From assembly GCA_965219385.1 (NCBI GenBank), contig CBDCNM010000002.1:2288936-2352935 (forward strand): a stretch of DNA of 64,000 bases, read 5' to 3'. Shown here piece by piece: positions 1 through 5,090 of the stretch. Made by a program: the position numbers and the translations under genes. The stretch's first letter is position 1. Each line of letters opens with the position of its first letter. The stretch is from Candidatus Latescibacterota bacterium (GTDB lineage Bacteria; Latescibacterota; UBA2968; UBA8231). The notes under the pieces were generated by a model, which saw nothing but the letters and a program-made list of their open reading frames with translations, was not told the DNA's origin and ran no database searches.

Positions 1-812
1 ACCGTGCTGTGCCGTCGAGACGAACTCCTGGGAAGGGCGTCGCCGCGGGGGGCGTCGCCGCGGCGTTCGCGTACGCCTTCGTGGATCGCGAGTTGCGGCT
101 CGGCGAGTTCGGTGCCTGGCTGAAGGTCCAGGAATCCATGCGCAGCGAGCGTCCGGCCGCCGACAGCATGCTGACCGCCTGCGAGGATGCCGTAGCGCGC
201 TTCCTGCCGGGTTACGGGAACCTGCGACTTGGCAGCGACGACCGCCCGCAGCTCTGGATTGACCAAGGTACGACGGCGATTCCGGTCCGGCAGCTCTCGG
301 ATGGCGAACGCGGGATACTGGCTCTCGTATTGGACCTGACCCGGAGGCTTGCGCAGGCCAACCCCAATTTCACCGACCCGGCCTCCGAAGCCGAAGCGGT
401 CGTCCTGATCGACGAGATTGACCTGCATCTGCATCCCAAATGGCAGCGCCAGATCATTCACAACCTGACCACCACTTTCCCGCGCTGCCAGTTCATCGCG
501 ACGACTCACTCACCGCAGGTCGTGGCGTCCGTCGAGCCCGATCAGGTTCATCTTTTGGCTCCTGTTGGAATCATCCATCCGGACCGCAGTCTTGGGATGG
601 ATTCAAACTGGATTCTACGCCACCTCATGGAGGCCGATGACCGACCCGAGGATGCGATGGCTGCCATTCAATCTGTTGAGAACTTGATTGCGAAAGGAAC
701 CTTCGAGGAAGCGCACGCCGCGATCTCAGAGGCTAAGAAGAACGGGCTTGACCTACCAGAGTGGTCCGTTCTTGAAGCGCGCATAGCTCGACTGGAGGTT
801 TTGGCCGAATGA
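1..812 (+). CDS. ABC/AAA-family ATPase, PtuA/Septu-like (5' end outside window)
   Basis: ABC signature LSDGER, Walker B/D-loop VVLIDEIDLHLHPKWQR and H-switch IATTHSP; Walker A not in window; stop overlaps the next ATG (ATGA). Confidence 0.9.
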   Translation, partial: RAVPSRRTPGKGVAAGGVAAAFAYAFVDRELRLGEFGAWLKVQESMRSERPAADSMLTACEDAVARFLPGYGNLRLGSDDRPQLWIDQGTTAIPVRQLSDGERGILALVLDLTRRLAQANPNFTDPASEAEAVVLIDEIDLHLHPKWQRQIIHNLTTTFPRCQFIATTHSPQVVASVEPDQVHLLAPVGIIHPDRSLGMDSNWILRHLMEADDRPEDAMAAIQSVENLIAKGTFEEAHAAISEAKKNGLDLPEWSVLEARIARLEVLAE

Positions 813-1519
813 AGTACATCCAGAAGACCGGATGCCCGCACTCTTATTCCAAGTGGTGCGCTGCAGTTGCGGGAACGAATAAGTCTGATTGGCGTGAGGT
901 GCCTTCGACCCAAAAGGACCAAATATTGGCGGCTATGATTGCAGAGCAAGGCGGGTTGTGTGCCTATACGATGCGTCGGATTGACAAGGATTCATCGCAT
1001 TTGGAGCATATCAAGCCACAGAGTCGCTGCCGGAAGGACCTGCGTGGGTCTGACTTGGACTACTCCAATTTGATAGCGTGTTTCCCACGGCGCGATGTGA
1101 AAGGACAGCCTCGCTATGGCGCACGGCTTAAGGATAATTGGTGGGAGAACGATGGCACCGAATTCGTGTCTCCGCTTCAGCCTGCTTGCGAACAGGTCTT
1201 TCGATTCAAGCTTGATGGTAAGATTGAGGCAGTCGGCAATCGAACCGAAGCCAGAACCACGATTGCCGTCCTCGGCCTCGATCACAGAAGTCTTACCGAA
1301 GACCGAAAGCGCTTCATTGAGGAGTTCATCTACGGGCAGACGGGGGATAACCCAATGTCTTACACCGCCGCGCAGCGTGCACGAGACAAGATTTGCGATC
1401 TTAACGGGAATAATCTCTTCTACGAGTTCTGTGTTGCAATACGAGCAGCCCTAGAAGAGCATATGGCAGCCCTCAAGAAACTCCGCCAGCGCAGGAGATA
1501 TGCGCGGAAGAGCAGATAA
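809..1519 (+). CDS. HNH endonuclease, PtuB/retron-associated (TIGR02646-like)
   Basis: EQGGLCAY...HLEHIKPQS...LDYSNLIAC pattern and later TIAVLGL motif; coupled to the ATPase. Confidence 0.85.
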
Positions 1520-1520
1520 C

Positions 1521-4500
1521 TTGCCGAGTGACGACAGGCATTCGGAAGCCGCCTTCGAGATCGTAATCGAAGCGCACCTGCTCCAGAACGAATACGTTCC
1601 CGTTTCCCGCGAGGGCTTCGACCGCGACCGCGCGATCTTCCCCGACACCGTCCTCGCGTTCATCCGCGAGACCCAGCCCGTGGAATGGGCCAAGCTAGAA
1701 GCGCTCCACGGCGACCAAACCGGCGAGCAGATTCTCACGGACCTGTGCAAGTGGATGGACGCCAACGGCTCGCTCGCAACCCTGCGCCACGGCTTCAAGT
1801 GCTACGGGCGAACGCTCCATGCGGCGTTTTTCAAGGCGGCTCACGAACTGAACCCAGAGCTCGAAGCCCGCTACGCAGCTAACCAACTCGGACTCACCCG
1901 CCAGCTTCGTTTCTCCCCTCAGTCGGAGAAATCGCTCGACGTAACCCTAAGCCTGAACGGCATCCCCATCGCCACGGTGGAGCTCAAAAACCCGCTCACC
2001 GGGCAGACGGTAGAGGATGCGATCCATCAGTACCGGCGCGACCGCGATCCCCGCGAGTCGATCTTCGAGTTCAAACGCCGCACACTCGTCCATTTCGCTG
2101 TTGATACCGAATGCGTGCGCATGACCACGCGCCTGGCCGGCGACGCGACTCACTTCCTGCCGTTCGACAAGGGATGTGACGGCGGTGCCGGGAATCCGCC
2201 CGATCCGGCGGGCCGCAGCTATCGGACGGCCTACCTTTGGGAGGAAGTGCTCGCCCGGGACAGCCTGCTCGATGTGCTCGCCCGGTTCATCCATTTGCAG
2301 ATCGAGGAGAAGCGTGACGACCAGGGCAGAAAGGTGAAGGTCGAGTCGATGATTTTCCCGCGCTACCACCAGCTCGATGCCGTCCGGCTGCTGGTGCAGG
2401 CGGCTCGCGACGAGGGCGTCGGGAACAACTACCTCATCGAGCACTCGGCGGGCAGCGGCAAGAGCAACACGATCGGCTGGCTCGCGCACCGCCTCGCTTC
2501 CCTGCACGACGAGGCAAACGAGCGCGTCTTCGACAGCGTGATCGTGGTGACTGATCGCGTCGTGCTAGACCAGCAGCTGCAAGACACGATCTACCAGTTC
2601 GAGCACAAGCTCGGCGTCGTGCAGAAGATCGACGAGCGCTCCCGTCAACTCGCCGAAGCCCTTGAGAACGCGGTCCCCATCATCATCACCACGCTGCAGA
2701 AGTTCCCCTTTGTGTCGCGGCAGTTGCTCAAGACGGCCAAGGAGCGAGGTATCCAGGGGACGGGTACGCTGCCCACGCGACGCTGCGCGGTAATCGTCGA
2801 CGAAGCCCACAGCTCGCAGGGAGGGGAGACGGCGACGGACCTCAAGGAGGTCCTCGGCGGCGAAGACCTGCGGGAGGAGGCTCGAAAGCGTGCGGAGGAG
2901 GAGGGGCGCGAGGATCTGGAAGAGCTGTTCCGCAGCATGGCCAAGCGCGGCCGGCAGGCGAACCTGAGTTTCTTCGCCTTCACGGCCACGCCCAAACACA
3001 AGACCCTTGCCGTGTTCGGTCGGGACGGAGAGCCGATCCATCGCTACACCATGCGGCAGGCGGTCGAGGAAGAGTTCATCCTCGACGTGCTCAAGCACTA
3101 CACCACGTACGCGACCTACTTCAAACTGCTTAAGGCCTGCGAAGACGATCCAAACGTCGAGCGGAAGAAAGCAGCGCGTGCGCTGGCGCGCTTTCTGCGC
3201 CTGCACCCCCACAACATCGCGCAGAAGACCGAGGTGATGGTGGAGCACTTCCACGCCGTCACGCGCCACAAGATCGGTGGCCGAGCCAAAGCGATGGTCG
3301 TCATCGGCTCCCGGCTGGAAGCGGTGCGATACAAGCAGAGCTTTGATCGTTACATCCAGGAGAAGGGATACGCGATTAAGACGCTGGTCGCCTTCTCGGG
3401 GATGGTTCAGGACGACAAGCTCCCGGACGTGGCGTACACCGAGGAGAAGATGAACTCCGGCATCCGGGAGAAGGAGCTTCCGGAGAAGTTCGCAACACAG
3501 GAATACCAAGTGCTGCTGGTCGCGGAGAAATATCAGACCGGGTTCGATCAGCCGCTCCTGCACACGATGTACGTGGACAAGCGGCTCGCTGGCATCCAGG
3601 CCGTCCAGACGCTGTCGCGACTCAACCGCATCCATCCGCTGAAGGAGGACACTTTTGTTCTCGACTTCGTAAACGACCGTGAAGAAATCCGCGAGGCGTT
3701 CAAGGTCTATTACGAAGGTGTGGAAATGGGGGAAGAAGTGGATCCCGCCCGAATGTACGCGGTCAAGGGAGAACTCGACGCCTCCGGGATCTATCTCGAT
3801 GAAGAGGTCGAGCGGTTCTGTGCCGTGTACTTCAAGCCAAGGCAGCGTCAGAGCGCCCAGGACCACCAGGCGATGAACGCCGCGCTCGATCCCGCGGTGT
3901 CGCGCTTTACCAGCCTGCAGAAAGACGAGGAGGACGAGGCGGAGCTCTGGCGCGGAAAGGTTCAAGCGTTCCGCAACCTTTACGGCTTCCTGAGTCAGAT
4001 CATCCCGTACCAGGACTCGGACCTGGAGCGCCTGTACGTGTTCCTGCGCCATCTGGCGGCAAAGCTGCCACGGCGCCGGAGCGGTCGGGCCTATCAGTTT
4101 GACGACGAGGTGCGACTCGAGTACTACCGTCTGCAGAAGATCAGCGAAGACTCGATCTCCCTCGCGGAGGGTGACGCGCATGCCCTGGATGGGCCGACCG
4201 AGGTCGGCAGCGGCGCTGGGCACGAGGAGTCGGTGCCGCTTTCGCAGCTTATTGACGTTGTCAACGAACGCTTCGGCACAGATTTTAATCAGGCCGACCA
4301 GCTCTTCTTCGATCAGATCGTCGAGGCGGCGGTGGGTGACGACGGATTGCGCCAGGCAGCCGCGGTGAACCCGGAGGAAAAGTTCGAACTGGTATTCAGG
4401 AATCTTCTGGAACGACTCTTTGTCGAGCGCATGGACCAGAACGAGGAGATTTTTGTCCGCTACATGAACGACGAGTCCTTCCAGCAGACCGTCAGCGGCT

Positions 4501-5090
4501 GGATGGCCTCCGAAGCGTATCGACGGCTGCGGACCGGCTCGGTCGCGGCAGAGGAATTGCCAACGGACCGGGCGTTTCCGGCGGGACTGCGTCTGGTGGA
4601 AGGCCGGCCCGAGGACCGCTACGTGACCTGCGTGCCGTTTGTCCCGCTCAGGGCCGCAGCGGGTGCCTTCGGCGACCCCCAGCACATCGAGGACGACGGC
4701 TTCGAGTGGGCGGCCGTGGATTCACGCCACCGCTTGCGACCAGGGATGTTCGTCGCGCGGATCGTGGGCCACTCAATGGAACCCGCGGTCCCCCATGGAG
4801 CGTATGGTTTGTTCCGCGCGCCCGTGGAGGGCACGCGCCAGGGTAAGACGGTGCTGGTTCAACTCCACGACGGTGTCGACCCCGAGACCGGGGCGCGGTA
4901 CACCCTCAAGCGGTACGAAAGTAAGAAGGTCCAGGATGGTGACTCCTGGCGGCACGCAAAGATCACGTTGAAGCCGACCAATCCCGAGTTCGAGCCCATC
5001 GTCCTCACCTACGCCGACGAGGGTGAGGTGGCAGTCGTGGCGGAACTGGTGGAGGTGATCGCTGCAATGCCTTCTGACGGCCGCCGATAA
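1521..5090 (+). CDS. hsdR: Type I restriction enzyme R subunit with C-terminal S24 (LexA-like) peptidase domain
   Basis: Nuclease [14 protein letters not shown], Walker [33 protein letters not shown]; tail has AAAG, GHSMEP, TLKRY. Start is TTG 1521 or ATG 1500. Confidence 0.95.

Follow-up and report, generated by a model that had tools for sequence, protein, structure and literature searches.

Does a type I restriction–modification (R-M) complex control a Septu-type defence encoded within its own operon? The question is raised by a 64,000-nucleotide stretch of DNA from a Candidatus Latescibacterota bacterium (GCA_965219385.1, contig CBDCNM010000002.1, positions 2,288,936-2,352,935, forward strand; hereafter the window), which opens with the genes of an ATP-binding cassette (ABC) ATPase and an HNH nuclease, ptuA and ptuB, running directly into hsdR. 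An earlier note on this DNA had proposed that the R-M complex may replace the retron as guard or partner of a PtuAB-like effector, giving a composite backup defence. Little is understood of what triggers Septu, and type I restriction has few described guards (PrrC and Ronin); a PtuA lineage bound to one R-M subfamily offers a direct test of whether an ABC ATPase effector can be rewired to a methyltransferase in place of retron DNA. We find that the operon is real, recurrent and composite, and its sequence relatives place the window ATPase on a PtuA branch of its own, found almost only in type I R-M operons. A composite backup defence is likely; guarding by the R-M complex is unproven.

A PtuAB pair between hsdS and hsdR

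The complete operon reads hsdM-hsdS-ptuA-ptuB-hsdR on the forward strand, its upstream part being taken from the genome contig. Window base 1 (L001:18001 in locus coordinates) falls inside ptuA, which starts 394 bases upstream of the window. Outside the window lie hsdM (L001:14318-16306; 662 amino acids; PADLOC MTase_I, 2e-259) and hsdS (L001:16303-17610; 435 amino acids; Specificity_I, 3e-101). They are followed by ptuA (1..812, whole gene L001:17607-18812; 401 amino acids; PtuA, 3e-108 over residues 1-400), ptuB (809..1519; 236 amino acids; PtuB, 6e-56) and hsdR (1521..5090; 1189 amino acids; Pfam HSDR_N, SWI2_SNF2, T1R_D3-like and Peptidase_S24). The genes are tightly packed: hsdM/hsdS and hsdS/ptuA are joined by GTGA and ATGA overlaps, the latter comprising the hsdS stop and the ptuA start, ptuA and ptuB share an ATGA at 809-812, and the ptuB stop (1517-1519) is followed by a single base before hsdR opens with TTG at 1521, a contiguity that the earlier note had described correctly. 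hsdR may instead start at an in-frame ATG at 1500. The junction of hsdS and ptuA showed nothing resembling a promoter, the promoter and terminator scans of the locus remaining at chance level. Small shares were present in five RNA runs, and the single exact 184-base contig in ptuB from one of them (depth 3) has no bearing on transcription or habitat.

None of the catalytic motifs examined in HsdM, HsdR, PtuA or PtuB is missing. HsdM has intact DPACGTGG/NPPF and HsdR intact D140/E154/K156 and DEAH motifs, so that the locus carries a type I set in which hsdM, hsdS and hsdR all have family matches and catalytic motifs are kept. PtuA and PtuB are the best PADLOC families for the ATPase and the HNH protein. 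In PtuA, Walker A, signature, Walker B, D-loop and H-loop are intact, and its AlphaFold2 model (predicted local distance difference test, pLDDT, 82.4; predicted template modelling score 0.78) matches retron Ec83 PtuA (E 9e-26) and Septu PtuA 8eea (E 1.7e-24, template modelling score 0.70) in Foldseek. PtuB scores 86.4 bits against a cut-off of 52.15 with TIGR02646 and keeps E66-H67 and N87, the second cysteine pair being degenerate in this HNH type. The pair thus shares with type I Septu (PDB 8EE4, 8EEA; Septu Ec-B88) the order of ABC ATPase and HNH nuclease, the overlapping genes, the fold and a PtuA without N-terminal extension. Unlike type I Septu, it comes from a branch restricted to a single type I R-M subfamily and has residues of its own and swappable modules. 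Phage genomes gave 7 distant matches only, with best full-length identities of 24-27%.

The PrrC family, whose anticodon nuclease domain is a HEPN domain, is absent among the best 25 of the 147 PADLOC families for the locus; the 401-residue ATPase has a helical tail with no fused anticodon nuclease domain, and the HNH protein is separate. A type I-A retron was rejected, the reverse transcriptases (RTs) being distant and the PtuA extensions missing. The earlier note had asked whether hsdM and hsdS or an RT lies upstream: hsdM and hsdS were found there, no RT was found near the locus, and the three RT matches of the genome are all more than 1 Mb distant or on another contig. Within 12 kb around the junction there is no match to Rfam, which covers such RNAs only in part, and no intergenic gap precedes ptuA. 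The effector of type I-A retrons (Ec78/Eco7, Ec83) is a homologous PtuAB with a signature of partner co-option (PMC12819146). Here there is no RT, and the PtuA clade lacks the retron-type N-terminal extension (29 versus 93 residues before Walker A), has a shorter insert (216 versus 260) and lies on a separate tree branch; the NCBIfam retron PtuA model gives 221.9 bits, below its cut-off of 500.

The clade has its own residues, F129, G149, L165 and R161, in the subdomain after strand 126-130; F129 occurs in 81% of 62 clade rows versus 0 of 44 other non-retron rows. The insert is net basic in the R-M clade (median +4 versus -1 and -4). In the window PtuA this insert is 16 residues shorter than in most close relatives (401 versus 417 amino acids), with the gap at about residues 100-105, upstream of window base 1; locus L007 has a similar gap.

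A PtuA branch of type I operons and its exchangeable modules

With one protein as query we found nine genome loci, seven in Ca. Latescibacterota and the others in Nitrospinota and Desulfobacteraceae. All nine have hsdR sequence downstream, and all eight with readable upstream DNA have hsdM-hsdS upstream. The same five genes, with an ATPase identity of 41%, lie on a plasmid of Ketogulonicigenium vulgare (Alphaproteobacterial), a cultured and non-pathogenic host. Contigs from other public runs matched the hsdS-ptuA and ptuB-hsdR junctions without differences, no single piece covering the entire operon; together with the recurrence in other loci, they rule out an assembly chimera.

The genome loci were pooled with the best 80 of 571 metagenome loci, 48 loci on viral contigs and 20 host-phylum regions. 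Among the 159 pooled loci, 152 had an ATPase match, of which 74 were hsd-linked, 68 were not and 10 were unreadable, with linkage scored by hsd profiles built from the pooled loci themselves. Run on 54 of the 78 neighbours picked beside non-linked loci, PADLOC found no type I hsd gene and reported retron RTs, BREX, DISARM-like and other genes. A quick tree was computed from 131 ATPase cores after 32 rows (short, duplicate, low-scoring or with a motif missing) had been dropped. All 70 hsd-linked rows fell on a single branch of 77 rows (Shimodaira–Hasegawa-like approximate likelihood ratio test 95), and none of the 50 readable rows outside it had hsd neighbours. Linkage to hsd genes, whose recurrence the earlier note had made a test, is near-exclusive for this ATPase branch. 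The other seven rows of the branch comprise three unreadable contigs, two escapes from the R-M context and two long-branch rows that fall outside it in a mixture-model tree. Both clear escapes are damaged or incomplete: L014 has internal deletions, an altered Walker B and no HNH gene, and L036 lacks PtuB and has altered motifs. L061, dropped from the tree as short, has PtuAB without downstream hsdR, its upstream DNA being unreadable. No intact stand-alone copy of the R-M PtuA clade was clearly seen in the pooled loci.

A careful tree, thinned to 61 rows by leaving out escapes, long branches and unreadable rows, grouped 34 R-M rows with 100/98 support and placed 7 retron rows on a separate branch; both trees were built without the solved Septu sequence. 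A search of two further phyla (401 and 51 genomes; best 4 candidates per genome in the larger phylum) gave two new loci with high scores, each flanked by hsdS and hsdR, and lower-scoring matches that were not hsd-linked. In other branches, PtuAB pairs lie beside or inside BREX (PglX, PglZ) at L082, L084, L089, L185 and L186, PglZ in the last two being assigned by sequence likeness only. Some PtuA-type ATPases (P0142, P0143, P0145-P0148, P0151) are fused to PF18145, which we take to be SAVED, and are possibly a cyclic-nucleotide-gated form.

The association narrows further to one HsdM subfamily. In 168 host-phylum genomes, whose relatives are not independent, a PtuA match adjoins 14 of 22 hsdM loci at identities of at least 61%, versus 0 of 106 at 56% or less. 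Eight close hsdM loci have no PtuA; the six that were read have other cargo or are broken, and one lies at a contig edge. In L163, L166 and L167, close hsdM orthologs, the hsdS-hsdR slot holds cytosine methylase and GHKL ATPase genes. The hsdS-ptuA gap measures -19 to +11 nucleotides in 59 of 60 loci, and extra genes occur in 3 of 49 hsdM-hsdS and 6 of 54 ptuB-hsdR junctions, these two counts being small. Of the 61 loci whose downstream DNA was readable, 59 keep hsdR sequence. These gene contents indicate a one-way dependence, the R-M system not needing PtuAB.

Inside the operon, the parts of PtuA have different histories. Identities of the PtuA C-terminal tail (about 98 amino acids, 517..812), which travels with the HNH type, correlate with those of PtuB at 0.81 over 66 loci, and tail and PtuB show no such relation to HsdM or HsdR (-0.03 to 0.06); the ATPase core tracks HsdM (0.59) and HsdR (0.53). 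The tail-PtuB covariation fits the known interface: in solved complexes PtuB is sandwiched by the C-terminal extensions of PtuA (PMC12819146; PMC12065111). Type I Septu forms a PtuA hexamer that binds PtuB between the C-terminal domains. Comparison of the DNA with relatives delimits a conserved block from signature to H-loop at 301..516. Across the bin 301-500, identity is 80-93% for 11 of 12 PtuA-bearing relatives and 69% for the twelfth, one or other of its flanks being unalignable in 9 of the 12. The window shares tail and HNH, without the N-core, with L010, L011, L013 and L144, and shares the N-core, without tail and HNH, with L007, L009, L142 and L143, a mosaic pattern that resembles the hsdS variable domains in the same comparison. 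Overall, these patterns indicate that the operon is a mosaic in which the N-core and the tail-HNH module swap independently around the conserved block, 301..516 being the putative crossover zone. Such independent swapping explains the composition step, with G+C fractions of 0.620 in the ptuA core, 0.556 in its tail and 0.529 in ptuB, versus 0.625 in hsdR (genome 0.598); the AT-richness of the ATPase tail and HNH gene had already been seen in the earlier note. Natural chimeras of core and tail-HNH module may show which part of PtuA senses and which chooses the target.

What may control PtuAB

The reading that we favour, with a probability of about 0.45, is that the window encodes a Septu-type pair of a lineage dwelling between hsdS and hsdR, self-inhibited, with the methyltransferase as its likely sensor. 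PtuA would dock on the HsdM methyltransferase, as predicted below. PtuAB would be self-inhibited without the R-M complex, so that orphans would decay and not kill, and the methyltransferase would be needed to switch the pair on, not to hold it off. Anti-restriction proteins or DNA events that disturb the methyltransferase would activate PtuAB; a phage attack on restriction would thus turn the nuclease on and halt the infected cell, with tRNA or DNA being cut according to the HNH type. An R-M system that does not need PtuAB, orphans that decay and a survivable loss of Hsd genes together fit this switched-on pair better than a held-off one. Trigger and target are drawn by analogy from PrrC (PMC12707154), Ronin (10.1101/2023.04.06.535777) and Septu; in known Septu and retron work ATPase and nuclease activities are both required for defence. 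In retron co-option, PtuA clusters by partner and PtuB is scattered (PMC12819146), a pattern that the R-M lineage mirrors.

PrrC in EcoprrI is likewise an ABC ATPase-driven nuclease found almost exclusively inside a type I R-M operon (PMC12707154; 10.1101/2024.01.29.577857). It differs in being one chain with its anticodon nuclease domain, where here the HNH protein is separate and exchangeable, and in that its latency imposed by R-M is demonstrated, control by R-M being predicted here. In Ronin (HsdMS + RonA), which sets a precedent, HsdMS senses Ocr/ArdA for a linked effector (10.1101/2023.04.06.535777), which is a 61-amino-acid membrane toxin; that system has no hsdR, and here hsdR is usually kept.

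For the interaction with Hsd proteins, the evidence is a predicted complex of HsdM with PtuA(1-318), which scored 0.43 against 0.02 for the best of three controls, with runs agreeing in at least 63% of contacts and a partner pLDDT of at least 77. Of 157 solved pairs, 116 attain the mark applied to such complexes, as do 2 of 215 mismatched pairs; at scores of 0.60 or less, 18 of the 157 solved pairs and both of those mismatched pairs attain it. In other PtuA lineages we found four HsdM-like::PtuA fusions (P0149, P0150, P0153, P0160), three of which have an altered NPPF motif.

Several observations weigh against a sensor role for HsdM. The score of 0.43 lies in the weak band, no interface was returned, and the alignments behind the prediction were our own, built from genes inherited together. 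Across 53 pairs of loci whose HsdM catalytic domains are more than 85% identical, identity of the ATPase core spans 31 to 99%, a spread not easily reconciled with one tight interface. Within the core, HsdM is tracked most closely by the conserved recombination block (0.65), so the tracking may reflect linkage, and the clade could be confined simply by recombination through the hsd flanks. Intact-looking PtuAB occurs with a decayed or absent hsdR (L009, L035), without hsdS (L049) and beside a frameshifted hsdM (L008); all four are metagenome assemblies, which may contain errors, and paralogs may provide rescue. As a stand-alone pair, Septu protects E. coli with no partner (PMC13096335). Among the 8000 candidates scored, the clade yielded no fusion with an Hsd subunit apart from the multiply deleted chimera P0140, the sole long match with HsdS sequence, and the idea of an HsdS-PtuA fusion was rejected.

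The main rival is an independent Septu with its own phage trigger, merely housed in the R-M operon, and we consider such a passenger, confined by recombination, nearly as likely as the sensor reading. It would borrow the operon promoter, in keeping with the lack of a promoter-like site between hsdS and ptuA, and would move only when hsdS, the conserved block and hsdR recombine homologously, which would trap its lineage there. Its variable N-core would be a phage-facing sensor under diversifying selection, and the core does vary strongly where HsdM is almost identical. Like the hsdS recognition domains, the mosaic runs along conserved DNA blocks, close hsdM orthologs hold other cargo (cytosine methylase with GHKL ATPase) in the same slot, and embedding is common in type I R-M (10.1101/2024.01.29.577857). 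Against a mere passenger, other PtuA lineages switch context freely between stand-alone, BREX and retron settings and the R-M branch almost never does, its escapes are damaged, and a weak HsdM contact is predicted.

Strict masking as in retrons or PrrC, with a PtuAB that is toxic alone and the R-M complex as its antitoxin, is improbable. The PrrC-like position, the tight hsdS-ptuA junction and the weak HsdM contact would suit it, and it has precedents in Ec78 PtuAB (PMC12819146), Ronin (10.1101/2023.04.06.535777) and PrrC (PMC12707154), but intact-looking PtuAB in L009 and L035 (hsdR), L049 (hsdS) and L008 (hsdM) argues against it, assembly errors being possible. Of the proposal that the R-M complex replaces the retron as guard or partner, it is this antitoxin form that these four loci weaken. 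Least probable of all is an auxiliary restriction nuclease that the Hsd complex loads onto unmethylated phage DNA for cutting without cell arrest: the net basic ATPase insert of the clade, nicking of DNA by PtuAB in vitro (PMC12819146) and the two loci that keep hsdMS-ptuAB without hsdR speak for it, but with hsdR sequence in 59 of 61 loci a second cutter would usually be redundant, and Septu, where tested, works through abortive infection and by cleaving tRNA, the stand-alone form cutting tRNA-Tyr (PMC13096335).

A more tentative step beyond the sensor reading is that these operons are a third regulatory class of PtuAB, a guard docked on a type I methyltransferase, fired by phage anti-restriction proteins and diversified by HsdS-type cassette recombination. 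If this is true, DNA specificity, sensor and nuclease warhead are recombined independently of each other within a single operon. Published work describes defences embedded in type I R-M as a class, covers Septu inside Hma and raises the idea of a backup defence (10.1101/2024.01.29.577857). The available part of that source points out neither a PtuA lineage specific to R-M nor module shuffling, and its figures or supplements may list Septu in type I R-M. Our literature search returned no paper on such a lineage, its module shuffling or its Hsd contact, though Krishnan et al. 2020 may describe such neighbourhoods.

Neighbouring genes and further observations

HsdR carries a C-terminal Peptidase_S24-like domain at about 4650-5045 of the window; a tail of similar length is present in 16 of 45 full-length homologs, the others ending near residue 1000. 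HsdS has no extra C-terminal domain and ends normally in the PtuA loci listed. Directly upstream of hsdM lies a DUF4062 gene (L001:12804-14267) that matches the PADLOC candidate PDC-S60 and is present at one of the nine related genome loci (L008, frameshifted). Upstream of it, a PIN-domain gene and a small open reading frame (L001:11483-12546) are preceded by a strong sigma-70-like site (11/12). Elsewhere the same genome holds another PtuAB-like pair, which stands alone, and another type I R-M operon (L160, G000:C2:1462246; L176, G000:C1:254376), the latter operon holding a different ABC ATPase with DUF4276.

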